DNA from: Flavobacteriales bacterium
GTDB lineage: Bacteria > Bacteroidota > Bacteroidia > Flavobacteriales_F > PHOS-HE28
Length of the DNA: 64,000 bases
Direction of reading: 5' to 3'
Assembly: GCA_016788295.1 (NCBI GenBank)
Contig: JAEUSY010000013.1
Location: forward strand, 1,862 to 65,861
In this document: positions 12,654-51,000 of the stretch, piece by piece
Layout of the letters: each line of letters begins with the position of its first letter
How positions within the stretch are numbered: position 1 is the stretch's first letter
Position numbers and translations under genes: made by a program
Notes under the pieces: model-generated
What the model was told of the DNA's origin: nothing
Seen by the model: only the letters and a program-made list of their open reading frames with translations
Databases searched by the model: none

Positions 12654-14846
<2,193 letters not shown>

Positions 14847-21912: not shown

Positions 21913-21938
21913 GATGAATGTTCTTGTCCTGCGTGAGA

Positions 21939-23712: not shown

Positions 23713-23716
23713 CGGC

Positions 23717-24988: not shown

Positions 24989-25010
24989 CTGTTGACAAAC
25001 GCACCTCGTT

Positions 25011-25046
25011 AATGAGCCCGGCCCCAGCCGGGCTCATTATTTTTGT
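25011..25046 (+). terminator. Rho-independent terminator
   Basis: AATGAGCCCGGC-ccca-GCCGGGCTCATT followed by ATTTTTG. Confidence 0.65.
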
Positions 25047-25184
25047 CATCAGGCAACCAAAACAGTCGCCGATCCATCATTCTTCCACGCGAGCTTTCCA
25101 GTGGGAGCGTGACTCCTCTCCAGGGTCTTGTTCCTAACTTGACAATTACGCACAGTCCTTCCTTCCAAGCGATCGATCTATCTC

Positions 25185-28100: not shown

Positions 28101-28865
28101 ATCGATTCGCTTGCCACACAACCGGTCACGTGCTCAGGTGATTGCGACGGTCAAGTGGAGGTCTATGATCCAGAGGCGGTCTGGTACAGCTACGACGACG
28201 GTGCCACATGGACGAATTCCTCGGTGCTTGTTGATGCTTGCGAAGGCATTTACCCGATCCGCATCCGGAATGCCGCTGATTGCATTGGCACAGGAGCGAT
28301 CGCCGTGACAGGCCCTCCTCCAGTCGTTGCTGCGTTCGAGTGGGCACCCATTCCCGCCGACGTGAACGACCCCACGATCTACTTCAATACCACCTCGACC
28401 GGTTCAGACCATTACTACTGGGATATTGCCGGACTAACAAGCAGTACACTACCGAACCCCTCCTACACCTTCAACAACAAGGAACCGGGTGTTTACAACG
28501 TTTGCTTGACCGCTTTCAACTTCAATGAATGCCCGGATACGATCTGCCACGACATCATTATTGACGATGTGCTTTTCGTGTACATCCCGAACTCCTTTAC
28601 TCCGGACGGCGATGGGCTTAACGAGGTTTGGGGCATGAGCACCAATATCCCCGCGATCACCAATTTTGAGATGTACGTGTTCGACCGTTGGGGACAGGTG
28701 GTGTACAACACGAACAACCCTTACGCGACCGGCTTCTGGAATGGAGCTTACCAAAACAGCGGCTCCGTGCTGAAGAGCGATGTTTACGCTTATCGGATCA
28801 CGTATGAGATAGCGGCGACATTGGTTCGCAAGGAACTCATGGGCCATGTGACACTCTTGAAGTAA
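25185..28865 (+). CDS. Giant secreted adhesin-like protein (paralog 1): CUB-like N-domain, PKD, proprotein-convertase P-domain, FGDGWNGG module, SprB-like Cys repeats, PKD, T9SS type-B CTD
   Basis: Signal peptide. CUB-like CxGxL...ICP...I.DG pattern. P-domain ICISMEHSFMGDLVLSVTCPSGQ. SprB-like repeat CDGTAQSTITGGNAAAGFNYTWSNG. C-terminal FVYIPNSFTPDGDGLNEVW...GHVTLLK. Confidence 0.8.
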   Translation: MISNLHNFIRLATLCLACVLSTPQVTYAQQFSITAGSITTCAGVLEDSGGPAGQYGNGENYTAVICPDIPGDGISLLWAVFNLSNTGPNPVDRIRIWDGNSTAETFLGEYTGTALQGLIVSATTFNSSGCLTVQFISNANGVGDFAAAITCFTPCERPVAVATMTEASPALVCIGETIDFDGMASYAAAGFNIVSYTWDFDDGTTDNSPVTSHAYYEPGEYIVQLNLIDDNDCVNANVVDLQILVSTTPIFAGTTESLEVCLGSTVDLTGVAVPVTWTGIPEANFGNGVYLPDDVGTPFSSELTFAQFEPGQTLTNVNDLLSICISMEHSFMGDLVLSVTCPSGQVIILHQQGGGGTYIGGANDGDGNTNPVPGTCWDYCWSPTATLGTWVQSAAFGTSPNVMQGGTPPNNALIPGTYTSLQPWSNLAGCPLNGTWTFTSLDLWGADNGFLCNWSLNFNPGIIPDVTQFTPDLGLSTLDSTYWIGPYGTPDPNNPTELSFTPDLPGSYNYTYLVTDNFGCTYDTTITVTVAEQMVIDAGPDIILCNDPLPMAGQIVANGPPTNCTWVLQLLETFGDSWNGGATLAVIIDGAQTNYSISTNGTLQQSINLSVSTGSSIILQYTAGTIFNGENSFRLYDDLGNIVYQSPQGPPTGVAWSGTISCDGGTSPTVWEWSPTGGLDDPSDPLTNVFTTQSTWYVLTAYPAGNPQCAVVDSVNVSPDPSINAGQSNALIICASEPVFLMTDSLLGTPDLGGVWTDAAGNVMPDTFDPDNGVTGVYTYTVTSAAGCQATSTLDITVIPADDPTCCGVVDAGLPAFSCNLSIALSATPGNTGVGNWVGPVGAIFADAFATQTTVSVQPGMGGSHWFYWVEDDGAFCYLIDSVQMTFTDTIIISFTHTDAICFTYCDGTAQSTITGGNAAAGFNYTWSNGSNGVNVDAVTGLCAGTYTLTVTDDNGCTGSNTVVINEPILLEIDSLATQPVTCSGDCDGQVEVYDPEAVWYSYDDGATWTNSSVLVDACEGIYPIRIRNAADCIGTGAIAVTGPPPVVAAFEWAPIPADVNDPTIYFNTTSTGSDHYYWDIAGLTSSTLPNPSYTFNNKEPGVYNVCLTAFNFNECPDTICHDIIIDDVLFVYIPNSFTPDGDGLNEVWGMSTNIPAITNFEMYVFDRWGQVVYNTNNPYATGFWNGAYQNSGSVLKSDVYAYRITYEIAATLVRKELMGHVTLLK

Positions 28866-28883
28866 GTCCAAAAACCCTTAACA

Positions 28884-28917
28884 AGAGCGGCGACCACTGG
28901 TCGCCGCTCTTGTTTCC
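28884..28917 (+). terminator. Rho-independent terminator
   Basis: AGAGCGGCGACC-act-GGTCGCCGCTCT followed by TGTTTCC. Confidence 0.65.
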
Positions 28918-29077
28918 GACCGTTTGGGCGTTCAACAGCTGGCCCTTTGATGGCGGAAGGAAAGGTGTACTTGTCCGATCTTTGACAGTGGTCAAATAAG
29001 GATCAGTGCGCACAATGAACAGCCAGGGAACTTTTCACGGCGTTCGTGCGTCATCATCCCGACCGCACCGCTCAACC

Positions 29078-32000
29078 ATGATGCCGACCTCCCATTTCGT
29101 GTATAGGTTCACTCGCTTTGTCTCTTTGATGCTCGCTTTGGCTTGGTTCACACTGGCCCAAGCCCAAGTGATCCACAACATTGCCGATGGTAACCTTAAC
29201 GCATGCGATGGTGCCATTGTGGATAGCGGCGGGGAAGGTGGGCCCGGCTACGGCAACAACGAGAGCCATACTGCCACGATTTGCCCGGGCACACCCGGCG
29301 AAGGGGTCAGCCTCAACTTCATCATGTTCAACCTGAGCACTGCCGGGCCAGCACCATTGGACCAGCTCACGGTCTTCGATGGCGACAACACTGGAGCACC
29401 GGTGATCGGCACCTACACAGGCACTGAACTACAGGGACAGATCGTCTTTGCATCAGCGACCAACCCAACAGGTTGCCTCACTTTGTTCTTCACTTCCAAC
29501 GACAACGGAACGGGTACGTTCGCGGCTTCCATCACGTGCTACACACCATGTATTCCGCCTGATGCGGTGGCACAAATGAGCGAGCCTGCACCCGCCTTGG
29601 TCTGCGTAGGTGAGGACGTTACGTTCGACTGTAGTGCATCAACCGCGGCTGCAGGCTTCAACATCGTTAGCCGGGTCTGGGACTTCAATGATGGCACAAC
29701 AGATGAGGGCGCCGTGGTGCAACACAACTTCTCAGAACCGGGCGACTACCTGGTACAGTTGACGTTGACGGATGATAACGGCTGCACAAATACCAACCTC
29801 GTGGACCTGCTGGTGCTTGTTGGCACCACGCCGCTGTTCAACGGCACTACGCCAAGCCTGACCGTTTGTGAAGGAGCCACGGTAGACCTAACGGGTATTG
29901 TGACACCGGTGATGTGGACAGGCATTCCCGAGATCGATTTCGGTGACGGGGTATATCTCCCGGATAATGTGGGAAGCACGTTCACAAGCCAAGTAAGCAA
30001 CACCTATTTCTCTCCTGGAGCAACGCTGACCAACGTGAATGACCTTTTGTCCATTTGTGTGGACATGGAGCATTCGTTCATGGGCGACCTTGTCATCAAT
30101 CTCACCTGCCCCAACGGACAAAGCGTCGTGCTGCACCAACAAGGTGGAGGAGGCACCTTCCTGGGAGGCGCGAACGATGGGGATGACAACAACCCGCAGC
30201 CTGGGACCTGTTGGAACTATTGCTGGGCACCCAATGCGCCCAACGGCACCTGGGTACAATCGGTCGGTGCAGGACTGACCATGCCTTCTGGCACTGGCGG
30301 CAACGCTTTGCAACCAGGCACCTACTCCAGCGTTGGTAGCATGAACAACCTGCTCGGCTGCCCGCTGAACGGTACATGGACCATCGCCTTCACCGACCTC
30401 TGGGGCATAGACAACGGTTTCCTCTGTGCTTGGAACATGGACTTCAGCCCATCGCTCTATCCTGACCTGGTCCAGTTCACTCCCGTGCCCGGTTACAGTA
30501 CCACGGACTCCATGTACTGGTCCGGCCCGAACGTGGTGATCAACCCGGCCGACCCGCTTACAGGCTCGGTGACAGTGAACGATCCCGGCGTGTTCAACTA
30601 CACGTTCAACGTAACGGACAATTTCGGGTGTGTGTACGACACCACGATCACGATCACAGTGACGAATGCTCCGGTCGTAGAGGCCACCATGACCTTGGGT
30701 GCGGGCTGTAGTGATCCCGCCCAATTGGACGCGACCATCGTGGCATTCCCCCCTCCCCCGCCGCCATGCAACTACACGCTCACACTTTACGACTCGTTCG
30801 GTGATGGATGGAACGGGGGTGCGAACGTGCAGGTAGTGATCAACGGTGTGGCAACGACCTACTCGCTTCCACCCGGCGGGAACTCAGCATCGTATCCCAT
30901 TAGTGTGCAGACCGGAGCTACTATCTCGCTCGTATTCACGGCCGGGAACATTTGGAACAACGAGAACTCGCTGGCCCTTTTCAGCTATTCCGGAGCCACA
31001 TTGTACACGTCACCGGCCGGCCCTCCCACATCCACGCTTTGGACAGGAACCGGCAACTGCGGCCCGAACAGTGGACCCGTGGTGTATGCATGGACCCCGG
31101 CCGCTGGCGTTGTCTCCCCAACAAGCGCAAGTACCCTCACACAGATCACTCAGCCCACGGAATTCGTGGTGACCATACACCCACCTGGCCAGCCGTGGTG
31201 CAACACCACGGATACCGTTCTAGTGGCGCCTCCCTCATTCCTTGAAAGCGACAGTATCGTTACGCATGTGCTCTGCAACGGCGGGGACGGTTCGATCGAG
31301 ATCATCAATACTGGCCTTGGCGGCCCATGGAACTACCTCTGGACGAACGACCAGGGCGCAACTGTAAGTCAGGTGAACGGCGCTTTCGGGAATACACTTA
31401 CTGCTCCTGCTGGAACGTATACGGTGATCGTGACAGAAGGCGGGCCTGCGGCTAATGGATGTGCGGATACCCTAACGACCTCCATAACGGAACCAGAACT
31501 GCTGTTGTGGGACGTGCTGCCAGTTGATACCACGATCTGCCTCACCGGCATTGCCCAACTTGCTGCCACCACCACCGGCGGTACTGGCAACATCACCATA
31601 GTGTGGACTCCGGGCCTCGTGGGTAGCGGCCCCCACAACGTCAGCCCCGCGAACACCACAACGTACGCCCTGCAGGCCACTGACGCCAACGGTTGTGTCA
31701 TCGGTGGTGAGCAGGTCACCGTGACCGTGCTTCCTGCATTATCATACCTCCCGCTACAACCCGATGCGGAGTGCTTCGGTATTCCGGTGGATTACTTCGC
31801 GGTTGGTGTAAGCGGCGGTGATGGCGCCTACCAGTACGATTGGGGGCAGGGCCCACAACCGAGCCCCACAGCAACTTTCACATTGCCAGTTACCGGTACT
31901 GTTTGCATGACCTTGAGCGACGGCTGCGAAACACCACCGTTGACCACCTGTGCAACACTGGAGATATTGCAGACACCGCCCTTAGAACTGGTGGCCGACA

Positions 32001-32770
32001 CGGTGTTCGGATGCGCACCTTTTACGGTGGGCTTTGCACTAACGGACACAACAGGTGGAGCACAAGTGCGATGGTCATTCGGTCATGGACCTTCCGTGCA
32101 AGCACCACCGAACACCATACACGTGTATAATGTGGCCGGCAACTATACAGTGGGGGTTGAGGTGACCTGGCCGAACGGCTGCATTACGGACACGAGCATC
32201 GCACAAATGATCCGGGTGATCTCCGTGCCTATCGCGAGCATGACCTACAGCCCACGCCCGCCCACAGTGAATAATTCAGAGGTGCAGTTCCAGGATACGT
32301 CCATACCCAATGCGGTCTCATGGTTCTGGGATTTTGATGAGCTGGGTACCAGCACAGAGCAGGATCCCGTGGTGGAATTCCCCAACGAAACGAGTGGTGT
32401 TTACCCCGTGCTTTTCGCGGTTGCCAATGAACTGGGATGCTCCGACACGTTGCGCACTTTGGTCGAGGTGCAGGACGAGTTCCTTGTTTGGGTGCCGAAC
32501 ACCTTTACACCGAACGATGACGCACATAACCAGACCTTCTTCATCAGCGGGAATGACATCGCCACAGACGAGTTCGAACTGATCATCTTCGACCGCTGGG
32601 GACATGAGGTGTTCAACACTACCGATCCATACCTGGCATGGAACGGCACCCACATGAACAAAGGAGGAGAGATACTTCCCACCGGCATCTATAATTGGCG
32701 CTTGAGCGTACGATCACAGTCCACACAAAAGGAAAAGATCATCTACGGTCATGTGAACCTGCTGAAGTGA
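29078..32770 (+). CDS. Giant secreted adhesin-like protein (paralog 2), same architecture as 25185..28865
   Basis: Signal peptide MMPTSHFVYRFTRFVSLMLALAWFTLAQA. The CUB-like domain, P-domain (ICVDMEHSFMGDLVINLTCPNGQ), FGDGWNGGANVQVVINGV module and type-B CTD (LVWVPNTFTPNDDAHNQTF...GHVNLLK) are collinear with paralog 1. Confidence 0.8.
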   Translation: MMPTSHFVYRFTRFVSLMLALAWFTLAQAQVIHNIADGNLNACDGAIVDSGGEGGPGYGNNESHTATICPGTPGEGVSLNFIMFNLSTAGPAPLDQLTVFDGDNTGAPVIGTYTGTELQGQIVFASATNPTGCLTLFFTSNDNGTGTFAASITCYTPCIPPDAVAQMSEPAPALVCVGEDVTFDCSASTAAAGFNIVSRVWDFNDGTTDEGAVVQHNFSEPGDYLVQLTLTDDNGCTNTNLVDLLVLVGTTPLFNGTTPSLTVCEGATVDLTGIVTPVMWTGIPEIDFGDGVYLPDNVGSTFTSQVSNTYFSPGATLTNVNDLLSICVDMEHSFMGDLVINLTCPNGQSVVLHQQGGGGTFLGGANDGDDNNPQPGTCWNYCWAPNAPNGTWVQSVGAGLTMPSGTGGNALQPGTYSSVGSMNNLLGCPLNGTWTIAFTDLWGIDNGFLCAWNMDFSPSLYPDLVQFTPVPGYSTTDSMYWSGPNVVINPADPLTGSVTVNDPGVFNYTFNVTDNFGCVYDTTITITVTNAPVVEATMTLGAGCSDPAQLDATIVAFPPPPPPCNYTLTLYDSFGDGWNGGANVQVVINGVATTYSLPPGGNSASYPISVQTGATISLVFTAGNIWNNENSLALFSYSGATLYTSPAGPPTSTLWTGTGNCGPNSGPVVYAWTPAAGVVSPTSASTLTQITQPTEFVVTIHPPGQPWCNTTDTVLVAPPSFLESDSIVTHVLCNGGDGSIEIINTGLGGPWNYLWTNDQGATVSQVNGAFGNTLTAPAGTYTVIVTEGGPAANGCADTLTTSITEPELLLWDVLPVDTTICLTGIAQLAATTTGGTGNITIVWTPGLVGSGPHNVSPANTTTYALQATDANGCVIGGEQVTVTVLPALSYLPLQPDAECFGIPVDYFAVGVSGGDGAYQYDWGQGPQPSPTATFTLPVTGTVCMTLSDGCETPPLTTCATLEILQTPPLELVADTVFGCAPFTVGFALTDTTGGAQVRWSFGHGPSVQAPPNTIHVYNVAGNYTVGVEVTWPNGCITDTSIAQMIRVISVPIASMTYSPRPPTVNNSEVQFQDTSIPNAVSWFWDFDELGTSTEQDPVVEFPNETSGVYPVLFAVANELGCSDTLRTLVEVQDEFLVWVPNTFTPNDDAHNQTFFISGNDIATDEFELIIFDRWGHEVFNTTDPYLAWNGTHMNKGGEILPTGIYNWRLSVRSQSTQKEKIIYGHVNLLK

Positions 32771-32789
32771 CCGGCTCGATCTTCATTGC

Positions 32790-32830
32790 GAAGGGCTGAT
32801 GGCGATCCATCGGCCCTTTTGCTTTTCGCA
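32790..32830 (+). terminator. Putative Rho-independent terminator
   Basis: AAGGGCTGATGG-cgat-CCATCGGCCCTT followed by TTGCTTTTCGC. The stem is imperfect. Confidence 0.45.
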
Positions 32831-33032
32831 TCCATTGGCTTGTTCGTGGGTGATAATCAGACGTTCGTCCAAAACACGACCGCAAAGGCGCCTAATATCC
32901 GCAAGGCTGCTATTTTCATCGCTGAACCACCCGAACGATCGTCCTTAAGGGGGTCGTCGAGAACCAACACGCAGCATGCCCCTGCGCTGGACAATATTCT
33001 TGGAACGGATATCAAGCTTGGGCTTGACCCGC

Positions 33033-36000
33033 ATGGTGGTGGCCATGCTGATCGTGCTGCTTACATCGGGCGTTGTTAACGGCCAGGCCTATTCCATTTT
33101 CAACGGGACCACCAACGCATGTACAGGGGCATTCCTTGATAGTGGCGGACAAGGAGCGAGCGGCTACGGAAACAACGAGAACTACACCTACACCATTTGT
33201 CCCGATGTTCCCGGTGGTGCCATTTCGCTGAGCTTCCTCACATTCAACCTGAGCACTGCCGGAGCCGCGCCGATCGACTTCATGACGATCTATGATGGCA
33301 ACACCACGGCAGCACCACAGTTGGTCAATTGGACAGGCACGACAGGCCAGGGACAGGTCGTGAGCGCAAGCGGGGGCAATCCAACGGGTTGCCTCACCAT
33401 TGTGTTCCGAAGCAACAACACTGGTACAGGCGTCTTTGCAGCCACTATTACCTGTTACCAGCCCTGCAGCCGCCCCACGGCAGCAGCCACCCATGGCGCC
33501 ACCAACCCGCAACGCATCTGTCCGGGAGAAAGCGTCACGTTCAACAGTTCGGCGAGCACTGCGGCAGCGGGAAATAGCATCGCCAACCGACGTTGGGACT
33601 TCGGTGATGGCACTATCCTGAACAACGCGCCGGCCAATGTGAGCCATACCTATGCGCAGCCCGGAGGCTACATGGCGCAACTGACCGTGTTCGACAACAA
33701 CGGTTGCGCGAGCACCAACCAAGTTGACCTGCTTGTGCTCGTTGGCACGCAACCCACTTTCAACGGGACCGGCGGCACGCTGACCGGCTGCGTTGGTGAA
33801 ACATTGTGTTTGAACGGCGCAGTGCAAGGAACCTCTTGGACCGAGTCACCCAACCCCAACCTCGGCAGTGGTGTATTCCTGCCGGACATCGTGGGCGAGT
33901 GCTTCGAGAGCACCATCACCTACGATCAATTCCCTCCTGGGGCCACACTTACCAATGTTAATGGGCTGCTCTCCATTTGCATGGACATGGAGCACTCGTT
34001 CATGGGCGACCTCATCATCAACATCATCAGCCCTACCGGACAGACCGTTACCATGCACCAACAAGGCGGCGGCGGAACTTTCCTGGGAGTACCCGTTGAC
34101 AATGACCTGACGCCGAACGCGCAAGGCACTTGTTGGAACTATTGCTGGAGCCCAACGGCAACGAACGGCACATGGGCTGACAACGCCACTGGCACACTAC
34201 CGGCAGGAACGTATGAGAGCCTCAACCCGCTTTCCGGACTCGTCGGATCACAGCTTAATGGCACTTGGACCATACAGGTGTGCGACATGTGGGCGTCGGA
34301 CAACGGCTTTATCTGCAACTGGAACATCGACTTCAACCCCTCTTTGTTCGATGACCTGATCGAGTTCACACCGGTGTACGGCGCGCTATGTGACAGCAGC
34401 TACTGGACCGGGCCGAACATCACCGGCCAGACCGCGAACTGCAACCAGGCGTGCGTGACCCCGCCCGCACCAGGGAACTACAACTACGTATACCACGTCA
34501 CCGACAACTTCGGATGCACTTACGACACGACGTTGACGGTGAACATCATTCCTGGCCCGCAAGTGAACGCCGGACCCGATGCAAGCACCTGCAACACGCC
34601 CGTGCAATTGGGCGCAACGATCACGAGTGGCGGCTTCCCCACCACCTGCACCTACACGCTCACGTTGTACGATTCCTTCGGCGATGGATGGACGGGGCTC
34701 TTCGGCGGATCGAACGGATCCAGCGTGACCATCACCGTGAACGGCACGCCTTCATCATGGACACTACCGACCGGATCGCAGGGCAGCACAACGATCACAG
34801 TAGCCACAGGGAGCACCATTCAATTGAGCTACACAGCTGGCAGCTTGTACAATGGTGAACAATCGTTCACGCTGTTCAACAGTACCGGCGGAGTGGTTTA
34901 CGCATCGCCCACTGGCCCTGGTGGAGGCGTGGCCTGGAATGGCGCGGCCAACTGTCCGGGTGGCGGTTTCGTCTACAGCTGGTCGCCTGCTGCGGGGTTG
35001 AACAACCCGAACATCGCTGACCCGACGGCAACGGTCAGCGGGACCACGCAATACTGTGTAACGGTCTACCAGGTCGGTCATCCATCGTGCACGAGCACGG
35101 ATTGCATGACCATTACGGTGGACAACCAGGTGGATCCCGGCACCAATACCAATGTGGCCGCATGCAGCAACGGGGGAGCGATCACACTGTTCGCGCAACT
35201 GGGCGGCACACCAACGGCAGGTGGCACATGGACGGCTCCTGGAGGCGGAGCGCACAGTGGATCCTTTCAACCGGGGGTGGATCCACCAGGTGTGTACACA
35301 TATACCGTTGGTGGTGCAGGTGCCTGTGGCGCGCCGCAAAGCAGTACAGTGAATGTTACTGTGAACCCCTTGCCGAACGCGGGCACTTCATCGAGCATGG
35401 CAGCATGCAGTACCGATGCCACGCAATCGATGTTCGCACTGCTCGGCGGCGGTGCACAAGCAGGTGGCACATGGAACGGACCATCGCCAGTGGTAGGTGG
35501 GAACTACAACCCGGCCACCATGAACCCCGGTGTTTACACCTATACGGTGAACGGAACGGCGCCGTGCCCGAATTCGACGGCCACCGTAACAGTAACGGAG
35601 AACGCTCCACCGAACGCAGGCAACGATGCAAGCATTACGCTTTGCAACACAAGTGCGCCCGTAGTGTTGGTAACCCAACTTGGTGGAAGCCCCAGCGGCA
35701 CTGGAACATGGACCGCCCCTGGTGGTGGCACCGTTAGTGGTGGCCTTGACCCCGCAGTGGACCCATCCGGTGTATACACCTATAACGTGGACGGTACGGC
35801 ACCCTGTCCGAATGATCTGGCCACGCTGACCGTTGCGATAAACCCAGCCCCGAACGCGGGAACTCCCGGAGCGATCACGCTCTGTTCTTCTGATGCACCG
35901 GCCTCGCTCTTCGCACAACTCGGCGGAACACCTGATGTCGGCGGCACGTGGAGCGGGCCTTCACCAGTTGTAGGTGGTATGATCGATCCGGCGACGATGA

Positions 36001-39000
36001 ACGCCGGTGTTTACACCTACACGGTGAACGGCGTTGCGCCTTGTCCGAGCGAGAGCGCGACAGTGACGGTGACGATCAACACACCGCCTGTGCCAGGTAC
36101 GCCCGGCGCCATCACGCTGTGTTCATCGGATGCACCAGCATCGCTGCTCGCACAACTCGGTGGAACGCCTGATGCGGGAGGCACGTGGAGCGGGCCTTCA
36201 CCAGTTATTGGCGGCATGATCGACCCCGCGACGATGAACGCCGGTGTTTACACCTACACGGTGAACGGCGTTGCGCCTTGTCCGAGCGAGACCGCGACTG
36301 TGACGGTGACGATCAACACGCCGCCAGATCCAGGTACGCCCGGCGCGATCACACTGTGTTCTTCGGATGCACCGGCATCGCTCTTCGCACAACTCGGCGG
36401 AACGCCCGATGCAGGAGGTACATGGAGCGGGCCTTCGCCTGTGATCGGTGGCATGATCGATCCGGCGACGATGAACGCCGGTGTTTACACCTACACGGTG
36501 AACGGCGTTGCGCCTTGTCCGAGTGAGAGCGCGACAGTGACGGTGACGATCAACACGCCGCCAGATCCAGGCACACCCGGCGCGATCACGCTGTGTTCTT
36601 CGGATGCACCGGCATCGCTCTTCGCGCAACTCGGCGGAACGCCCGATGCAGGAGGAACATGGAGCGGGCCTTCACTAGTTGTAGGCGGCATGATCGACCC
36701 CGCGACAATGAGTGCGGGCGTGTATACCTACACGGTTGACGGTGTGGCGCCGTGCCCGAGTGAGAGCGCGACAGTGACGGTGACGATCAACACACCGCCA
36801 GATCCAGGCACACCCGGCGCGATCACGCTGTGTTCATCGGATGCACCGGCTTCGCTCTTCGCGCAACTCGGCGGAACGCCCGATGCAGGAGGTACATGGA
36901 GCGGGCCTTCTCCAGTTGTAGGTGGCATGATCGATCCTGCGACGATGGACGCCGGTGTTTACACCTACACGGTGAGCGGCGTTGCGCCTTGTCCGAGCGA
37001 GAGCGCGACAGTGACGGTGACGATCAACACACCGCCAGATCCAGGTACGCCCGGCGCGATCACACTGTGTTCTTCGGATGCACCGGCATCGCTCTTCGCA
37101 CAACTCGGCGGAACACCTGATGTCGGCGGCACGTGGAGCGGGCCTTCACCAGTTGTAGGCGGCATGATCGATCCTGCGACGATGGACGCCGGTGTTTACA
37201 CCTAAACGGTGATCGGCGTTGCGCCTTGTCCGAGCGAGAGCGCGACAGTGACGGTGACGATCAACACGCCGCCAGATCCAGGTACGCCCGGCGCGATCAC
37301 GCTATGTTCTTCGGATGCACCGGCATCGCTCTTCGCACAACTCGGCGGAACACCTGATGTCGGCGGCACGTGGAGCGGGCCTTCACCAGTTGTAGGTGGT
37401 ATGATCGATCCGGCGACGATGAACGCCGGTGTTTACACCTACACGGTGAACGGCGTTGCGCCATGTCCGAGCGAGAGCGCGACAGTGACGGTGACGATCA
37501 ACACACCGCCAGATCCAGGCACACCCGGCGCGATCACACTTTGTTCTTCGGATGCACCGGCATCGCTCTTCGCACAACTCGGCGGAACGCCTGATGCAGG
37601 AGGTACATGGAGCGGGCCTTCACCAGTTTCTGGAGGCATAATCGATCCGGCGACGATGAACGCCGGTGTTTACACCTACACGGTGAACGGCGTTGCGCCT
37701 TGTCCAAGTGAGAGCGCGACAGTGACGGTAACGATCAACACGCCGCCTGTGCCAGGTACACCCAGCGCTATCACGCTATGTTCTTCGGATGCATCGGCAT
37801 CGCTCATTGCACAACTCGGCGGAACGCCTGATGTCGGCGGCACATGGAGCGGGCCTTCACCAGTTGTAGGCGGCATGATCGATCCGGCGACGATGAACGC
37901 CGGTGTTTACACCTACACGGTGAACGGCGTTGCACCGTGTCCGAGTGAGACCGCGACAGTGACGGTGACGATCAACACGCCGCCAGATCCAGGCACACCC
38001 GGCGCGATAACGCTGTGTTCTTCGGATGCACCGGCATCGCTCTTCGCACAACTCGGTGGAACCCCTGATTCGGGTGGTACATGGAGCGGGCCTTCTTCAG
38101 TTGTAGGTGGCATGATCGATCCGGCGACAATGAGCGCGGGGATATACACCTACACGGTGGCTGGACTTGCACCATGCATGAGCGCGTCATCCACCGTCAG
38201 CATCACCATCAACACGCCATCGAACGCGGGCAACAATGGCAGTCTAACACTTTGCACGACCAGTACGGCCACATCGCTCTTCGATCAATTGGGAGGCAGT
38301 CCTCAAGCTGGCGGGACATGGAGCGGACCGAGCACTGTAACCGGCGGCATGATAGACCCGGCGACAATGAACGCGGGCAACTACATCTACATGGTGGCAG
38401 GGACTGCACCATGCCCCGACGTCGCCGCAACAGTGGCGATCGCGATCAATTCAATGCCCAACGCGGGGATCGATGGCGGCCTTACGCTCTGTTCATCGAG
38501 CCCGGCCACAACATTGATCAGCGGCTTGAACGGCACACCGGACAGTGGAGGCAACTGGACAGCACCCGGCGGTGGCGCATCGAACGGCACCTTCACTCCG
38601 GGAGTGAGCGTGACCGGCATCTATACCTACACGGTGAACGGCATAGCTCCGTGCCCTGCCGTTTCCGCGACCGTGGATGTGAACGTGGTAACGAACCCGA
38701 ATGCGGGCCTGCCCGGAAGTGTTACGCTGTGCGCTACTGATGCGGCGACCCTGCTCTTCGCGCAGCTTGGCGGAACGCCCGATGCTGGTGGCGTATGGAG
38801 CGGACCGAGCGCGGTGGTCGGCGGTTTGTACGACCCGGCCACGATGAACCCCGGCGTGTACACCTACACCATCGCTGTTCCTCCGCCGTGCGTGAACGCC
38901 AGCAGCACAGTGACCATCACCGAGATCGCACCGCCCAACGCTGGTACCGACGGCGCGCTCACCATGTGCATCAGCAGTCCGGCAACATCGCTGTTCGCGC

Positions 39001-42000
39001 AGCTTGTTGGTGGTGCACAAGCCGGTGGAACGTGGAGCGGACCTTCTCCTGTCGTAGGAGGAATGTTCAACCCAGCGACGATGACGGCGGGTGTGTACAC
39101 CTACACCGTGAGCGGTACCGCGCCCTGCCCTGCTGATCAAGCGCAAGTGACGGTGAGCGTGGTGGCCGCACCGAACGCTGGTACTCCGGGAAATGCAACG
39201 CTTTGCGCAACTGACAATGTCCTCAACCTCTTCGCGCAGCTTGGCGGAACGCCCGATGCTGGTGGCGCATGGAGCGGACCGAGCGCGGTGGTCGGCGGTT
39301 TGTACGACCCGGCCACGATGAACCCCGGCGTGTACACCTATACCATCACTGTTCCTCCGCCGTGCGTGAACGCCAGCAGTACAGTGACCATCACCGAGAT
39401 CGCACCGCCCAACGCGGGCAACGATGGCGCGCTCACCTTGTGCATCAGCAGTCCGGCAACATCGCTGTTCGCACAGCTTGGTGGTGGTGCACAAGCAGGT
39501 GGAACGTGGAGCGGACCTTCTCCTGTCGTAGGAGGAATGTTCAACCCAGCGACGATGACGGCGGGTGTGTACACCTACACCGTGAGCGGTAACGCGCCCT
39601 GCCCTGCTGATCAAGCGCAAGTGACGGTGAGCGTGGTGGCCGCACCGAACGCTGGTACTCCGGGAAATGCAACGCTTTGCGCCACTGACAATGTCCTCAA
39701 CCTCTTCGCGCAGCTTGGCGGAACGCCCGATGCTGGTGGCGCATGGAGCGGACCAAGTGCAGTGGTCGGCGGTTTGTACGACCCGGCCACGATGAACCCC
39801 GGCGTGTACACCTACACCATCACTGTTCCTCCGCCGTGCGTGAACGCCAGCAGCACAGTGACCATCACCGAGATCGCACCACCCAACGCAGGCACCGACG
39901 GCGCGATCACCTTGTGCATCAGCAGTCCTGCGACCTCGCTGTTCGCGCAGCTTGGTGGTGGTGCACAAGCCGGTGGAACGTGGAGCGGACCTTCTCCTGT
40001 CGTTGGTGGCATGTTCGATCCAGCGAACATGACCGCCGGTGTATACACCTACACAGTGAACGGAACATCGCCCTGCCCCAACGACCAGAGCATCGTGACA
40101 GTGACCGTGGTAAGCGAGCCAGACCCCGGTGGCCCCGGCTTCCTGACGATCTGCGCAACGGATGCGCCCGATGACCTCTTCAGTTACATAGAAGGCACAC
40201 CGGACCAAGGTGGCCAATGGACAACGCCAAGCGGCACAACGACCTCCGGCGTGTTCGATCCGGCTACCATGGCGTCGGGCGTATACACCTACACCATCAA
40301 CGTGCCTCCGCCTTGCGTCAGCGTGAGCAGTACGGTTACCGTGGATGTGATCACTGCACCGAACGCGGGACTGGATGGCGCAGCTATGCTCTGCCTCACT
40401 GGCGCTCCGCTCGATCTCTTCACTACGTTAGGCGGATCACCTGATGCCGGTGGGACCTGGACCACGAGCTCTGGCTTGCCGTTCAGCAGTACGTTCGACC
40501 CCGCGGTGCATTCTCCCGGCGTGTACAACTACACGGTGAACGGCATTGCGCCATGCCCAGCGGATGTTGCGAGCGTGACCATCGCGGTTACCCAACTGCC
40601 GTATGCAGGGAACGACGCGATCCTGAACCTCTGCGTTGTTGGTGATGCGGTCGATCTTTTCGGCGCATTGGGCGACGCGGATATCGGCGGCACTTGGAGC
40701 GGACCCGGTGGTGCTTCAGCAGGTGTGTTCACGCCGGGCAACAGCATTGCTGGTAACTACACCTACACCGTTGCTGGCTCGCCCCCCTGCCCGTCCGCAT
40801 CAGCCACTGTTACGGTGAACGTCTTGAGCAACGCCGACGCAGGAGGCGATGGCGGCACCACCTTGTGCGGAAGTGATGACCCATTGTCGCTCTTCGATCT
40901 GCTGCAAGGAAGCCCCGACGCAGGCGGCACATGGTTCGCTCCCGGCGGCTCCACAATGAACGGCATATTCAACCCGGCCAACAGCGCTCCGGGCGTGTAT
41001 ACCTACATCCTCTACGTACCTGCGCCATGCCAGAACGACACGGCACAAGTGGTCATGAGCGTTGTGGCCCCCGTGAGCGCAGGCACCAACGGAAACGCGA
41101 CCCTGTGCTCCAACGATTCTCCCGTCGCGCTCTTCAACTTGCTGAACGGCGCGCCGGACCTTGGTGGTTCCTGGACCGCACCGAACGGCGGCCCATCGGA
41201 AGGCAGCTTTGATCCAGGTGTTGACATGACCGGTGGCTATGTGTACACCGTCTACGCCATCGCACCTTGCACCGACCAAAGCGCCACCATAGCGCTGGGC
41301 GTGAACCCATTGCCCGATGCAGGCACCAATGGATCTGCCACGCTCTGTCCTGAAGCAGCGCCCATTTCGCTCTTTGCGCTGTTGGGTGGTTCGCCCATGC
41401 CCGGGGGCACATGGACCGGCCCCAACGGACAGCCGAGCAACGGCATCTTCGATCCGGCCAGCAGCCCACAAGGTGCATACACCTACACTGTTACCGGTTT
41501 GGCCCCGTGCCCGAACGCGATCGCCAGTTCAACGGCCACAGTATACCTCATCGCTCCGCCCAATGCAGGCCCCGATGCGGTATCCTGCACACTGGAGTTC
41601 ACGCTGAACGCCACGGGCAACTGGGCCAGCGGCACGTGGAGCGCAGCAGCCGGCATCACCTTCGGCGACAGCAATTCGCCGACGAGCACCGTTACAGCTA
41701 CCAGTGGCGGCGCATACACCTTCACATGGAGCGTGACCAGCAACGATGGCTGCGCGACGCAGGACCAGGTGACCATCACCTTCACCGATGCGATCGTGCC
41801 TGTTGTCGCCACCACCGATGCCATATGCAACAGTGCATGCGACGGTACGGCCAGTGTGCAGGCAACGGGCGGCAACGGCACCTACAGTTATGCTTGGTCC
41901 AACGGGATCGCAGGCAACACGCAAACGGCATCGAGCATCTGCGCGGGATCGTACACAGTGACCGTGCTTGATGTGAACAACTGCTCGGCAGCTGCGCCCT

Positions 42001-42788
42001 TCACCATTGGCGAACCCGTGGCACTGGTGATCGATGCCATCACTGCGGTGAACGAGACCTGCCCCGGAAGTTGCGATGGTACCATCACCATCTCCGACCC
42101 GCAGGGCGCACAATACAGCATCAATGGTGGAAGCAGCTACCAAGCGGGCGCCTCCTTTGCCAGCCTTTGCCCAGGCCAGTATGCGATCGTGATGATGGAT
42201 GGGAACGGGTGCACGGCCTCCGGGATCGCAACCATCACATCACCCGCACCCGTTACAGCCTTCTTCACGGTATCCCCGGACAGCCTTATCGCCAGCGATC
42301 CGGAAGCGCAGTTCAACAATCTTTCGAGCCCCAATGCCACGGCCTATAGCTGGGACTTTGCCGGGCTCGGCAGCAGCACGGCCACATCGCCCACCTACTC
42401 TTTCCCCGGCGTGCTGGGCGGCATTTACACCGTGTGCCTCACCGCCACCGATGCCAACGGCTGCCCCGATACCTACTGCGCCCCGGTGCAGGTCTTCGAT
42501 GCGCTGCTGGTGCACGTGGCCAATGTGTTCACGCCCAACCACGATGGCATCAACGAAGGCTTCGCGCCGGTGTTCAACATGGACTGGGCCGTGAGCGATT
42601 ACGAGTTCCTCATCTTCAACCGTTGGGGCGAACTGCTGTACGAGACCCATGTCGTGGACGAGAAGTGGAACGGCATACACGGTGGTGGTACGGTCGAGAC
42701 CGAAGTGTTCGTATGGAAGCTGCGTTGCCGCGACAAGCTCACCCGAAAGTGGATCGAGCGCATCGGGCATGTGACGGTGCTGAAGTGA
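33033..42788 (+). CDS. Giant secreted adhesin-like protein (paralog 3, about 3250 aa) with about 27 tandem 79-aa repeats and T9SS type-B CTD; reading frame interrupted by one TAA at 37203-37205
   Basis: Signal peptide MVVAMLIVLLTSGVVNGQA. CUB-like and P-domain (ICMDMEHSFMGDLIINIISPTGQ) as in paralogs 1 and 2. About 27 repeat units of the form C..D....LF..LGG.P..GGTW..P.....G..DP.....GVYTYTV.G..PCP. SprB-like repeats at 41.8-42.2 kb. CTD LLVHVANVFTPNHDGINEGF...GHVTVLK. ORFs 32976..37205 and 37209..42788 are in the same frame and differ from a continuous ORF only by TAC to TAA. Confidence 0.7.
35859..38228 (+). repeat. Ten near-identical 237-bp direct tandem repeats (coding, 79 aa each) inside the giant gene
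   Basis: The unit beginning GGTACGCCCGGCGCGATCAC...GATCAACACACCGCCAGATCCA recurs with only a few substitutions per copy at 35859, 36096, 36333 and so on, up to 37992. Confidence 0.85.
38650..40070 (+). repeat. Higher-order 474-bp (two-unit) near-identical tandem repeat, about 3 copies, inside the giant gene
   Basis: Identical peptide blocks (...PPPCVNASSTVTITEIAPPNAG... alternating with ...APCPADQAQVTVSVVAAPNAG...) recur with a 474-bp period. Spurious minus-strand ORFs 38864..39100, 39338..39574 and 39812..40048 are near-identical, which reflects the same repeat. Confidence 0.75.
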
Positions 42789-42816: not shown

Positions 42817-43272
42817 TTGCAAACTGTGCTTTATCGGATGCGTATTCTCTATTTCTCCTGGGCTCTGTGGGGTCCTCTGTTCATAAGTGCGCAACCGAAC
42901 ACCACCTACGGCCCATACTACGGATGGCGTTGTGGGATAGTTGGCGCACCACCACTGCTTCGGCATATGATAGAAGAGGTCATAGCCACACGGGATACCG
43001 CAGTAATTTTCATGTGGTTGAGAGACAGCGGTCTGGTTCGGCAAGCATATGCCGCAGAGGCGATCATCCGGACCCAAAAGGCAGGCGTGGTGCTTCCAGA
43101 CTGGTCGACAATAAAAGCTAGAGATCTTCGGAGGTCAAGAACTCCAGTGATGGCTTGTAGAGGTTGTCACATGGGGTTGATCCCACTGAACAAGATCATG
43201 CGTCTCTGTCTCAAGCAAGCCAAACACGCTCGAGGAGGCCGCTCAAGCAGGAACAATGACCATCTGTTCTGA
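42817..43272 (+). CDS. Hypothetical small secreted protein, low confidence
   Basis: ORF with a possible signal peptide (MRILYFSWALWGPLFISAQ) in a lower-GC intergenic island. No recognisable domain. Confidence 0.3.
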   Translation: MQTVLYRMRILYFSWALWGPLFISAQPNTTYGPYYGWRCGIVGAPPLLRHMIEEVIATRDTAVIFMWLRDSGLVRQAYAAEAIIRTQKAGVVLPDWSTIKARDLRRSRTPVMACRGCHMGLIPLNKIMRLCLKQAKHARGGRSSRNNDHLF

Positions 43273-43340: not shown

Positions 43341-45320
<1,980 letters not shown>

Positions 45321-45474
45321 TCAGGTCGGTTCGCCCTCCCGTTCCGAAAGGGCTTGCGAAGATACCCGATCCACCCCGGTCCACAGGGTCTTTTTCCCAA
45401 CAATGACGCGGGCTTTGTTGATAATTAACAGTGCCACTGATGAGCAGTATCCGGCACATGGTCGAAGCGCTTGG

Positions 45475-46152
45475 TCAGACCGCTTCGGCAGGCCCCCTTC
45501 CAAGCAACTTGACCAATGCGGTAACATGCGCCCAGAGGACCGCTGGGACCAGTATGGCAGGCAAAAGCACCCAAGGCGCAGAGATGACCAGCACGTTCGG
45601 CTGGTCGAAAGCGAAGCGCTGAACAGAGGAAGGAATGCTAAGTACGGCGGTCATAACAACGTTGACCAGGGTTAAAATGCCGATAGAATTCCAGACAACA
45701 AGGACCCAACGGCACGGCTTACGCGCCGAAAGTGACCATGCTAACAGGAATGCAGCGCTGAGTCCGATGAGAATATCGAAGTTGTGCCCGCTGTAGGTCA
45801 TACTGCGAGGTACCATCCCTTCACGATATGCTTCATGTAACACAAGTTCCACCGGTACCCGAAGGATATGAATAGCAGTAAGAGCGACCATATCGGATCG
45901 GTACAGCCAACGTCTCCCGAGGGGCCATACAATGAAAAGAAGGATACACAGCAAGGCCGGTGCCAGCAAGGCGATCTGAGGCGGGGGGAATGACGTTGTG
46001 TTCTGGTAGAAACCAATTTCCGCTAAGATCAAGTGTACTCCGCCTAGCGTGACCAATACCAGTGGAAGCCGCCAACTGTCCGTCGCCCGAGCCGTCCAGA
46101 ACAAGCACCACACAACTGCAAACCCGAAAAGCAGGTAGCTTGCTGCGCTCAT
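45475..46152 (-). CDS. Hypothetical integral membrane protein (about 6 TM segments)
   Basis: Hydrophobic helices throughout. No recognisable motif. Confidence 0.5.
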   Translation of the reverse strand: MSAASYLLFGFAVVWCLFWTARATDSWRLPLVLVTLGGVHLILAEIGFYQNTTSFPPPQIALLAPALLCILLFIVWPLGRRWLYRSDMVALTAIHILRVPVELVLHEAYREGMVPRSMTYSGHNFDILIGLSAAFLLAWSLSARKPCRWVLVVWNSIGILTLVNVVMTAVLSIPSSVQRFAFDQPNVLVISAPWVLLPAILVPAVLWAHVTALVKLLGRGPAEAV

Positions 46153-46171
46153 AAGCGTTAACCTCTTTCGG

Positions 46172-47884
46172 TCAGAAGGCGTACGTGGCCCCGCCCATCA
46201 ACAGCGAACGCTGCACCGGGTGCTTGTACCAGCGCTCATACTTGCTGGCGCTGAGGTTGCTGAGGTCCATGAACAGACTGAGGCGCTTGTTGTAACGGTA
46301 CTCGATACCCAGGTACAGGTCGAGGAAACCGTCCAGGTCAACCTGCTGTACAGGGTCCACGAGCTCTCCGTTCTCCAAGGGGCCGGCCACCCGGTAGGCC
46401 GGGCGCTTGCCCAGGAACTGGGCCTCGGCCTTCAGGATCAGCTTGCTGCGCATATCGTACCGCGCCATGAAGGAAAGTGCGTAGGGGGGTAGGTTCCACG
46501 CCTCCTGCTGCACTTTGGTGGCGTAGGAGTACACGTCCAACCGGGCGGTAAGCGACAATTGCTCGCTCTTGCGGTAGTTCAGTTCGCCGCTCAGGTCCAG
46601 GACATCCACCTCGTCATAAACCACGTCCATGCGGTCTCCGAAGGGCTTGTTGGGCACGCTCACGTAAAGCGGCATGTCCTCTGTGCGACGCTTGCTCACA
46701 CGCACATCGAAGCCCAGGTCGCTGCTGAAGCTGCCGCGCAGACCGGCATAGGCATCGTACATTTTACTGGAGTTGCGCAGACGCGGGGCCCCGGTAAGCC
46801 AGGGGTTCTCGCGCGTGAGGCTGCGGAAGCTGTTCCGTTGGCGCTCGCCCTCCAGACCCACATAAGGCACCAGGATGTTGTCGAACAGGCTGTAGTGCGC
46901 GTACACCTTGGGGAAGAAGTGGAAGGTGGTCTCGCCCTGCGAATCGATGTACATGCCTGCACCAACGCGGATCATGTACGGCGCTTTCCCGGTGCTTACC
47001 ATGGGCGTAAGGCCGATCAGCGTTCCGTTCTGCCTGAACTCGCCCAAGGCATCGCCCAGGTTGCCCAGGTAAGCGTTGTTATCGATCAGCAGATCGCCGC
47101 TGTAGGTCTCGCTGCCCTCGGTCTTGCTCACCGTGGCGTTCACACGCATGTTGGTCTCGCGGCTCTTGCTGAGGTTGCTGTAGCTATGCACTTCCAAGGC
47201 CACATCGTGCGCAATCTTTGAACTGTCGGTGTACAGGCTGCGCAAGCGGCCCGCGAAACCCAGGTCGTTGTAGATCTGTTTGCGGTAGTCCTCCGGCGCT
47301 TCAAGGGCGTTCAGGGCATCCTCAATGCTATCGTTGCTGGCATAGCCGTAGTAGTTGATCCGGCGACGGTCGTAGATGAACCTTCCCGATGCCTCGTGGT
47401 CCGGCAGGAAGTGCTTGTAGAACGCATCCACGTTATTGTAGCCGTAATCGCTGGGCCCCACGTCGTCCAAGCCACCGTTACTGCTGAAGTGCTTCAGGTG
47501 AAGGCCGAACCCGTTCTTGCGCGACCGGGTCTGGTCGTAATAGAGCTCCCCGAGCGGGGTGGTGTACAGACCGAAGCCTGCTTTCACATAGCCCTTGTAC
47601 AGCCGCGATTGCGGTGACATTACGCTCAGCTTGGCGGGAGCTATGCTGTCCACCTTGGCCGGGATCTCCGCCTTGGTCGGCAACAGTTCGTAGCGCACCG
47701 GCAGCTCGGGCAGAATGGTATCAATGGGCTCTGGGCGCAGATCGATCTTCGTTGCGTCCTTCAAGGTGGGGCTGTAGATGCCCTGTACCACGTACTCGTT
47801 ACCGGGGGTGGTCACCTGGGCCGAAGCGACCGCGGACAAGAGGCCCGCGGCCAGGATGAGGATGTTCTTCTTCATGGCGTTCAC
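46172..47884 (-). CDS. Putative outer-membrane beta-barrel protein
   Basis: Signal peptide MKKNILILAAGLLSAVASAQ. Alternating amphipathic beta-strand pattern. C-terminal aromatic residue (…GGATYAF). Confidence 0.55.
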   Translation of the reverse strand: MNAMKKNILILAAGLLSAVASAQVTTPGNEYVVQGIYSPTLKDATKIDLRPEPIDTILPELPVRYELLPTKAEIPAKVDSIAPAKLSVMSPQSRLYKGYVKAGFGLYTTPLGELYYDQTRSRKNGFGLHLKHFSSNGGLDDVGPSDYGYNNVDAFYKHFLPDHEASGRFIYDRRRINYYGYASNDSIEDALNALEAPEDYRKQIYNDLGFAGRLRSLYTDSSKIAHDVALEVHSYSNLSKSRETNMRVNATVSKTEGSETYSGDLLIDNNAYLGNLGDALGEFRQNGTLIGLTPMVSTGKAPYMIRVGAGMYIDSQGETTFHFFPKVYAHYSLFDNILVPYVGLEGERQRNSFRSLTRENPWLTGAPRLRNSSKMYDAYAGLRGSFSSDLGFDVRVSKRRTEDMPLYVSVPNKPFGDRMDVVYDEVDVLDLSGELNYRKSEQLSLTARLDVYSYATKVQQEAWNLPPYALSFMARYDMRSKLILKAEAQFLGKRPAYRVAGPLENGELVDPVQQVDLDGFLDLYLGIEYRYNKRLSLFMDLSNLSASKYERWYKHPVQRSLLMGGATYAF

Positions 47885-50800: not shown

Positions 50801-51000
50801 TACTGGGCGGCGCCGTATTTGGCCTTGCTGAACAGGTCCATGGCGTTGGCCATGTCGGCGTTGCGGTGCTCGTAGTGGGCGGGGCGCTGGGCCAGCACAC
50901 CCGTGAAGAGCAGCAGGGCCATGGGCAGGGCCAGCAGCACGCGTTGGTGCATCATCGGAAAAGGGGTCTTCATCAAGTGGTCAAAGTTCTTGGGGGCCAT
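47881..51000 (-). CDS. Large tetratricopeptide-repeat (TPR) protein
   Basis: 1039 aa with a signal peptide. More than 15 TPR-like 34-aa units with the W-LG-Y/A-G-Y-A-F pattern throughout. Confidence 0.75.
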   Translation of the reverse strand: MAPKNFDHLMKTPFPMMHQRVLLALPMALLLFTGVLAQRPAHYEHRNADMANAMDLFSKAKYGAAQYELAQVVARISDRNDPTRVEAEFYSALCAVRLFNDDAGYRLLTFIAEHPEDLHVGAVRFELFKHTFSQKRWKDALAWSDQVDRFSLSPSDLEEYRFKRGYAFFQEQDPDRALGEFAEVQNGTGPYAVPSKYYASHIHYERGHYETALTGFRALEKDENFGKVVPIYIAEVLFLQGKYDELNDYVKPLLEDPSGTKRINEINRLAGEANYRRGNYAEALPYLQKSAQRVGVERGDRYILGYTYYRTGDCTKALAEFNLVATGEDSIAQLATYHMADCYLKLNEKNYARNAFKRAFDIGKDPKVKEDALFNYAKLSYELSFDPYHEAINALRNYLRTYPDTPRKDEAYEFLLNVYLRTKNYEDALAALDEIKNKDLRLREAYQKLAYDRGVELYEGRKYADAALFFERALKYPVNQQVNARAHFWMAESYYGQNDLPAALRKYDDLRNSPGAYSTELYEQAGYGMGYTFFKLKQYDEAATAFRRYVGARKGESRQRADAMLRVGDCYFVMKDNAQAVKWYDDAMRTGSPDRDYAMYQKGVCQGLQRQFNEKITTLKALLAEKPDSRYAADAKFQLGETYINLENDAEAMRYYEQVTTQHAKSPHVRQAMLQMALIHKRQGRVDQAIAGFKAIVAEYPTMDGSRDALAGLESIYVEQGRVSEYEAYVRGLKFVDPSTLDLDEKYYRSAEKLYFDEKCPQAIGAFGDYLNKYPNGAYALNALFYRGDCHYRAGQYDQALPDLEAVVQRNGLDFMENALFGASDILFRDKRWEGALDHFRKLETYASTPQNTLKAQVGAMRCLKELGRAEEAAVAAEKVAANSSATADMRSEAGLLVANGLLARNDTEGAYTKFKAISAGSTNAYGAEAKYYMAYVRHLQGQFRKAETEVFDLVKRYPSYDHWKARAFILLGDVYVQLNDRFQAKATLQSVIDHCQEPDLVAQARQRLEAINASEIQQITPAPQEELIVPVPDNTNGQ

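Follow-up and report, generated by a model that had tools for sequence, protein, structure and literature searches.

Twenty-seven tandem repeats as the probable Ig-like stalk of a giant T9SS type B surface protein in a Flavobacteriales genome

A 64,000-nt stretch of the genome of an uncultured Flavobacteriales bacterium (GenBank assembly GCA_016788295.1, contig JAEUSY010000013.1, positions 1,862 to 65,861 of the forward strand; referred to as the window) contains a gene at 32976..42788 (+) that carries a long array of tandem repeats. Here, we propose that the array is very likely the coding sequence for a stalk of 27 immunoglobulin (Ig)-like domains in a giant surface protein of the type B class of type IX secretion system (T9SS) substrates, and that the center of this stalk is specific to the lineage.

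Results

The array comprises 27 units in a single frame

An initial annotation made from the sequence alone had counted about 27 tandem 79-aa repeats at 35130..41530, and this count is borne out. When the unit boundaries were placed from the G-x-Y-x-Y-x-V anchors in the translation of the + strand, 27 tandem units of 78–80 aa each were located at 35127..41546 (+), all in a single frame. Successive anchors are 78–81 codons apart, corresponding to a period of 234–243 nt (mostly 237 nt). A hidden Markov model (HMM) of the unit family, run on the six-frame translation, detected exactly 27 full units, each with an E value of 1e-26 to 1e-33, and gave a weak match on the PKD domain directly after the array. 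Tandem Repeats Finder reported a period of 237 nt over 35865..38159 (9.7 copies, 90% matches, score 3603) and a period of 474 nt over 38754..40078 (2.8 copies, 94% matches). The repeat motif described in the initial annotation holds as well. The signature of the unit consists of two conserved Cys residues 53 residues apart together with LGG.P..GG.W and G.Y.Y.V, and ten residues (G6, C14, G28, G34, W36, P49, G55, Y57, Y59, and C67) are invariant across 17 representative units.

Metagenome-assembled genomes (MAGs) of uncultured Flavobacteriales are closest to the window, with identities of 91%, 76%, and 72% in the N-terminal region. One orthologue contig of 218 kb (L004, 72% identity) spans its own array, and two further orthologue contigs (L002, from a sister species at 91% amino acid identity, and L003) supply the first units only. 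The parts of the window array are as follows, with pairings taken from a neighbor-joining (NJ) tree of all units.

35127..35843 (+), units 1–3: old and diverged, with positional orthologues of units 1–3 in L002, L003, and L004
35844..38213 (+), units 4–13: homogeneous block of ten 237-nt units, monophyletic relative to the units of the orthologue
38214..38690 (+), units 14–15: diverged single units
38691..40112 (+), units 16–21: three copies of a 474-nt two-unit (A/B) super-repeat
40116..41546 (+), units 22–27: old and diverged; units 22 and 24–27 each pair with one L004 unit, and unit 23 has no L004 partner

Three antisense open reading frames (ORFs) lie over the array, at 38493..40217 (−, 574 aa), 40800..41471 (−), and 35388..35918 (−). 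They are probably by-products of the GC-rich in-frame repeats.

Predicted fold and family of the unit

The structure predicted by AlphaFold2 is all-β both for a single unit (predicted local distance difference test score, pLDDT, 79) and for three units (pLDDT 87), with the same strand pattern in each of the three. In Foldseek searches against the Protein Data Bank (PDB), fragments of the protein GhpA were the top matches to both models. The single unit matched 9flw_A with an E value of 0.02, a probability of 0.96, and 34% identity, and the three units matched 9flp_A with an E value of 9.6e-8, followed by titin I67–I69 and other tandem Ig arrays. GhpA of Aureispira sp. CCB-QB1 is a T9SS substrate that forms a heptameric grappling hook, whose stem consists of 52 Ig-like repeats and is stabilized by disulfides (bioRxiv 10.1101/2024.01.29.577165); its PDB entries are 9flp, 9fls, 9flu–9fly, and 9g8b. 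The predicted models and these matches support the suggestion of the initial annotation that the unit resembles Ig-like domains of adhesin-type surface proteins.

Profile comparison linked the unit to the PKD domains. The unit profile was aligned by hhalign with the window's own PKD domains over 67 columns (probability 81%, E value 1.2e-5), and the alignment brings together the Trp, the G-x-Y strand, and the C-terminal Cys. A diverse alignment of 75 units, drawn from 1,673 units in 148 family proteins, was used as a second profile. In a search of the PDB, it matched the PKD domains of KIAA0319L (E value 4.6e-6) and All3314 (E value 1.2e-4), and 5 of the 75 units matched the Pfam family K319L-like_PKD (PF22352), with a best E value of 1.4e-5. 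Remote homology to PKD by profile comparison and an Ig-like β-sandwich fold by structure prediction were thus both found. Like the PKD and K319L-like PKD families (PF00801, PF18911, and PF22352), the unit has an Ig-like β-sandwich, profile similarity, and the aligned Trp and G-x-Y-x-[YV] strand, whereas it differs from them in having a signature of its own without the WDFGDG motif; bona fide PKD domains flank the array. On the basis of the models and profiles, the unit is predicted to be an Ig-like domain and a remote member of the PKD superfamily that is undetected by current Pfam models.

Direct searches were negative. No Pfam match of any kind was obtained with 17 window units even at E ≤ 10, including the three PKD profiles, and a profile built from the window units only gave nothing above noise against the PDB sequences. 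GhpA chains were not retrieved from the PDB sequences by phmmer or hmmsearch. The resemblance to HYR domains (PF02494) suggested in the initial annotation found no match at any level, namely, with the full protein (E ≤ 0.01), the 17 window units (E ≤ 10), or the 75 diverse family units (E ≤ 1), and this assignment was rejected. Ig_7 (Ig-like domain CHU_C associated, PF19081) had no match in the window protein. It was also rejected as the identity of the array in the family, where the best-scoring stretch (of three each) in the relatives P0013 and P0021 directly precedes the C-terminal domain (CTD).

The family itself is large. An hmmsearch of 1.84 billion representative proteins retrieved 4,712 proteins at E ≤ 1e-3, of which 912 remained at E ≤ 1e-30. 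Counted as clusters at 50% identity, the family has at least 4,712 members, and a single protein carries as many as 31 units. Flavobacterium orientale (WP_188360909) is one of the culturable relatives in which the family occurs.

The gene encodes a probable signal peptide, a head, and a type B sorting domain

The features of the gene outside the array are as follows.

32976..42788 (+), whole reading frame: 3,271 codons, with one internal TAA and the final stop codon counted
32976..33083 (+), probable Sec signal peptide: ...LTRMVVAMLIVLLTSGVVNG followed by QA, read from the sequence by eye
33084..35126 (+), non-repetitive N-terminal head: weak CUB-like region, PKD, and P-domain
33498..33725 (+), PKD domain of the head (Pfam/NCBIfam)
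33978..34334 (+), proprotein-convertase P-domain (Pfam/NCBIfam)
41598..42473 (+), C-terminal accessory modules: K319L-like PKD at 41598..41780, SprB repeat at 41808..41906, and PKD_4 at 42279..42473
42513..42785 (+), T9SS type B C-terminal sorting domain (CHU_C/TIGR04131)

An alternative start at 33033 is the choice of the gene caller on a short-read contig of the same sequence (L001). The N-terminus read off the translation is hydrophobic and has a cleavage site of the VNG-QA type. At the extreme C-terminus, CHU_C (PF13585) scored 45.2 bits (cutoff 27) and TIGR04131 scored 36.5 bits (cutoff 35), so that the sorting domain of type B T9SS cargo is present above both curated cutoffs. The unit-rich homologues examined also end in CHU_C, and such homologues are named “gliding motility-associated C-terminal domain-containing” or “T9SS type B sorting domain-containing” proteins.

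No catalytic domain was found in the head. Between the P-domain and the array (34400..35100, +) lies a “TLTLYDSFGDGWTG...” segment without a Pfam or PDB sequence match, which belongs to the putative binding head.

Divergence among the units and history of the array

The initial annotation had described ten consecutive 237-bp units as almost base-for-base identical and had taken this as a sign of very recent expansion. A block of ten 237-nt units does exist (35844..38213, with the annotated register off by 15 nt), but its near-identity is found at the protein level, and the earlier judgment was probably made from the protein pattern. DNA identity is only 82–96% among units 4–12, whose protein identity is 89–97%, and 76–82% between unit 13 and units 4–12. 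There are no identical pairs of units, and the youngest adjacent pair in the block differs at 10 of 237 nt. Exact matches between units reach 137 nt at most (units 4 and 10), and 92 nt at most between adjacent units (units 9 and 10). Of the 68 columns that vary among units 4–12, 51 fall on third codon positions. The Nei–Gojobori method gave a mean synonymous divergence (dS) of 0.44 (range 0.12–0.97, units 4–13) and a mean nonsynonymous divergence (dN) of 0.05, with dN/dS among the block units of about 0.1 (about 0.04–0.2). Because dS among the block units is 0.12–0.92, dN/dS is low, and third-position differences predominate, a very recent expansion of the block is rejected. In the super-repeat of units 16–21, the A copies are 86–97% identical and the B copies 83–96% identical, and A and B share about 57%; the youngest pairs show 96–97.5% identity and a dS of about 0.09–0.10.

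The NJ tree places window units 1–3, 22, and 24–27 each beside the same-position unit of the orthologue. Window units 4–13 form one clade, which is the sister of the block of L004, itself a 474-nt A/B super-repeat at 97% identity, and units 16/18/20 and 17/19/21 form separate genome-specific clades. Unit 4 is 82–93% identical to its sister units and 79% identical to its positional counterpart in L002. The dS between the window and L002 is 1.0–1.4, compared with the mean of 0.44 within the block, which dates the coalescence of the block to the time since the nearest sampled species branched off. By within-species standards, however, the block is old.

Exchange between units was also detected, and the differences between units are clustered. 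Over the last 177 nt of unit 4, a single base separates it from unit 10 (permutation test on run lengths; p = 0.0005 for the pair and p = 0.0075 globally), which indicates that these two units, 1.4 kb apart, have undergone conversion at least once in the recent past. This tract was the only globally significant one in the test. In the four-gamete test, 52 of 105 pairs were incompatible, which is weak evidence because recurrent mutation can give the same pattern at a dS of about 0.4.

The number of units differs among orthologues, from 7 full-length units in P0083 and 13 in P0022 to about 22 in L004 (an estimate from gene length, as frameshifts hide several units) and 27 in the window. Other family members with 29–31 well-diverged units have a constant length across many independent assemblies, for example, a length of 3,023 aa recurs in four assemblies and one of 2,844 aa in six others, and a single sequence is repeated exactly on 51 contigs. 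Homogeneous blocks occur elsewhere in the family, in 18 of 28 units of P0001 and in 10 of 19 detected units of P0005. These sequence comparisons show that the central units were amplified separately in each lineage and that the edge units are conserved by position. The unequal crossing-over and concerted evolution invoked in the initial annotation are thus supported as a lineage-specific amplification of the center with some exchange between units (the NJ tree and the conversion tract), but the process is slow rather than fresh.

Assembly of the repeat block in this and related genomes

A short-read contig from the Logan assemblies (L001, SRR12425352) shares 13,296 nt with the window (22638..35933) at 100% identity and ends 90 nt into unit 4. 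The orthologue contigs L002 and L003 likewise end inside their own first block unit. Contigs of three runs are 100% identical to the window on both flanks, over 18,365 nt in SRR12425352 and DRR438521 and in an overlapping contig of SRR12425353; L080–L082 among the contigs cover 44932..50000. The same clone is therefore present in several public runs.

Related Flavobacteriales MAGs contain contigs of 366–395 nt (P0151, P0153, P0155, and P0156). The sequence of P0156 (370 nt) was read and amounts to a single collapsed unit with an overlap; the other three are assigned from their size only. Since P0156 starts and ends in the same unit sequence, some relatives must have truly identical units. P0163, a fragment without a contig, shows the same wrap-around pattern. 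L004 changes reading frame several times in its most homogeneous block (13900..15000). Many relatives in long-read MAGs appear as strings of ORF fragments of 60–135 aa (e.g., IPO56_01485/01495/01500). Repeat blocks of this 79-aa-unit family are commonly broken in assemblies, and the expectation in the initial annotation that the array would be prone to assembly failure is supported by the three contigs ending in the first block unit and by the collapsed unit of P0156.

A contig of the same species spanning the array was not found by exact-protein look-ups, metagenome scans, or a search with the C-terminus. The exact-protein look-ups with gyrB (two starts), the first-half ORF, and the paralogue starting at 29006 gave no match, and the look-ups that matched returned only short Logan contigs stopping at or outside the block. 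The metagenome scan with the C-terminal region yielded only relatives of up to 83% identity, on contigs beginning next to the array, and the protein search with the C-terminus reached no more than 69% identity.

An in-frame stop codon in unit 9

An in-frame TAA is located at 37203–37205 (+) in the conserved YTYTV motif of unit 9, which reads ...GTT TAC ACC TAA ACG GTG ATC... (context of base 37205, GAC...TA?ACGGTGATC), and all nine sister units have TAC. A second change unique to this unit, AAC to ATC, lies 8 nt downstream of the stop (37211) and creates GATC. The TAA splits the gene into a 1,409-aa ORF with the probable signal peptide and no CTD and a 1,859-aa ORF with the CTD and no signal peptide. 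Taken at face value, the TAC-to-TAA change would leave the gene currently inactivated. The stop may represent a genuine nonsense mutation of recent origin, a polymorphic variant, or an error in the consensus. When metagenomes were scanned for the DNA pattern of the unit-9 context with TAM, no match was obtained.

If the TAA were real and fixed, the protein would no longer be made and the array would be the decaying remnant of a pseudogene. We give this possibility substantial but minority weight. It is supported by the division of the frame, and the window is otherwise very accurate, with no mismatches over the 18,365 nt shared with the SRR12425352 and DRR438521 contigs and with an identical SRR12425353 contig. 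Mis-mapped reads from sister units cannot have supplied the “A” of the stop because it is absent from every one of them. However, no other disabling change occurs in the 9.8 kb, the reading frame stays open for 1,859 codons past the TAA, and the units show strong purifying selection, so that the inactivation would have to be of very recent date or polymorphic, or else an error. A local consensus error could also account for the two unique substitutions 8 nt apart, and the repeat block, unlike the rest of the window, has no coverage by independent contigs.

Genomic neighborhood

The array gene (about 3270 aa) is the last of four consecutive genes with a T9SS type B CTD, which follow an extracytoplasmic function (ECF) sigma factor gene in the region 23038..42788 (+).

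23038..23712 (+), ECF sigma factor, upstream of three smaller T9SS type B paralogues
23717..24988 (+), T9SS type B paralogue of 423 aa
25185..28865 (+), T9SS type B paralogue of 1226 aa
29006..32770 (+), T9SS type B paralogue of 1254 aa

The head with PKD and P-domain is common to the array protein and the paralogues at 25185..28865 and 29006..32770, and a weak CUB-like match is present in the latter and in the array protein. The paralogue at 25185..28865 contains a single isolated 79-aa unit at 27354..27578 (+) (HMM E value 3.9e-22), whose position is kept in L004 (8223). The L004 locus is syntenic, with one fewer paralogue of about 1250 aa. The next gene downstream is gyrB, on the other strand.

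Genes of type B cargo are often, not universally, adjacent to a gene for a PorP/SprF-like outer-membrane partner. Among the neighboring ORFs, those at 42817..43272, 21918..22964, 45475..46152, and 46172..47884 had no NCBIfam match at E ≤ 0.01, and the last three also had no Pfam match at E ≤ 0.001. Elsewhere in the window, a PorE-family T9SS/OmpA-like protein is encoded at 10503..12512 (−; 518.7 bits, below the cutoff of 600), and several further type A and type B CTD proteins are present. A 1,038-aa TPR protein at 47881..51000 (−) shows weak similarity to PorW/SprE (78.6 bits, cutoff 250). By sequence, the PorE-family and PorW/SprE-like genes would fit a T9SS-bearing genome without proving one; the T9SS core genes are located outside the window.

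Discussion

Here, we propose the following organization and history of the protein. The 27 tandem Ig-like domains of about 79 residues would form a rod-like stalk in a protein of about 3,270 residues, which would be exported by the Sec pathway and then by the T9SS through its type B CTD. The protein would probably stay attached to the outer membrane, where the stalk would hold the CUB-like/PKD/P-domain head roughly 0.1 μm from the cell, as estimated from the domain count and the dimensions of GhpA. In the evolution of the array, as the sequence comparisons show, an old scaffold of diverged edge units has been conserved position by position, and unequal recombination has amplified the center separately in each lineage, here giving the ten single units and the three two-unit copies. 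After amplification, the copies drifted apart, largely through synonymous changes, as purifying selection acted on every domain and gene conversion took place occasionally.

Several observations weigh against this proposal. The Foldseek E value of the single unit is weak (0.02), the link to PKD is remote in sequence, and no window unit reaches any Pfam threshold. The number and order of the block units lie outside the cover of independent contigs. Surface anchoring and the function of the head are suggested by the domain content, and no PorP/SprF-like partner was found among the adjacent ORFs. Finally, owing to the in-frame stop discussed above, this strain may not produce the protein at full length.

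Comparison with known proteins places the array protein among the T9SS type B cargo, such as SprB of Flavobacterium johnsoniae. It shares with them the giant size, a probable signal peptide, the Ig-like, PKD, and SprB repeats, and the CHU_C/TIGR04131 domain. In contrast to them, it has only one SprB repeat above the threshold, its bulk is the 79-aa unit missed by Pfam, and a PorP/SprF-like gene was not found next to it; the resemblance does not imply a role in gliding.

In line with the copy-number variation expected in the initial annotation, the stalk could alternatively be hypervariable in the manner of the Periscope proteins, with RecA-mediated unequal crossing-over changing the copy number between cells or strains at present and tuning the reach of the head. 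The concept is an established one in other surface proteins, whose repeat DNA is typically near 100% identical (PMC8201768). The array protein resembles them in having a distal head on a stalk made of globular domains in tandem, with a block of similar repeats at which short-read assemblies break. Exact runs of 60–137 nt between units would be enough for homologous recombination, and a conversion tract is present between units 4 and 10. The central units are genome-specific and differ in number between species, and the 97%-identical 474-nt super-repeat of L004 indicates a younger amplification in the gene family. Nevertheless, the ten units of the window are 76–96% identical in DNA, with mostly synonymous differences, and length variation is seen between species only. 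The lack of identical units, with the closest adjacent pair already 10 of 237 nt apart and a mean dS of 0.44, indicates that no duplication has been fixed recently. The family members with 29–31 diverged units are equal in length in 4–51 independent contigs, and no same-species contig spanning the array was found. The synonymous divergence argues against frequent recent duplications, whereas deletions would leave no such trace. We consider ongoing hypervariability of this array to be rather unlikely.

It is improbable that the block is an artifact of assembly, in which the number, order, or sequences of the ten units would come from mis-assembly or strain mixing. Short-read assemblies of this and related genomes do break exactly at the block edge, relatives give collapsed one-unit contigs, and the spanning orthologue contig L004 has several frameshifts in its block. 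However, each window unit has its own set of mostly synonymous differences and the frame is kept through all 27 units, which speaks against random errors or collapse, and the flanks are fully concordant with independent data.

The tandem Ig-like stem with conserved cysteines in a T9SS substrate is shared with GhpA, which is also the best structural match to the unit. Copies of the protein might therefore be imagined to bundle into a rigid hollow “grappling hook” for prey or particles in place of a single-chain stalk, since GhpA fragments head the structural matches for one and three units and the array protein, like GhpA, is a very large T9SS substrate with numerous Ig-like repeats. Such a multimeric appendage is very doubtful, because the GhpA chains have no detectable sequence similarity to the array protein, the latter is about half as long (about 3,270 versus 5,898 aa, with 27 repeats versus 52), its head domains differ, no ghpB/ghpC-like (PorP/PorE) genes were found downstream, and titin-type single-chain Ig arrays match almost as well.

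Within the stalk proposal, a more speculative extension can be considered. The stalk might be a recombination-tunable device in which the number of block units sets the reach of the head and the TAA-bearing unit 9 is a reversible off-state. One conversion, or one crossover deleting unit 9, would restore the protein, because the sister units have TAC, the exact flanks extend up to 92 nt, and the 237-nt units are in frame. We regard this idea as a long shot. If it were true, intragenic recombination would give both on/off switching and changes in length to a T9SS surface protein from the environment that is composed of unmodeled PKD-like domains.

In environmental Bacteroidota, the chief surface appendages are giant proteins of the T9SS type B class, which serve gliding, adhesion, and prey capture, and most of which are annotated by the C-terminal tag only. 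The array described here is an ordinary kind of object among them, and the understanding of this class of systems is unchanged. Its modest novelty lies in the unmodeled domain family and the structural link to the GhpA stem. The locus offers a clean example of stalk evolution, with conserved edges, a lineage-specific center, purifying selection on each domain, and occasional conversion. It also carries a warning for metagenomics, as the block ends short-read contigs and yields one-unit contigs, and reading frames break there in long-read MAGs. Moreover, it points to a large family of two-cysteine PKD-like domains of about 79 residues, whose nearest solved relative is the stem of GhpA.

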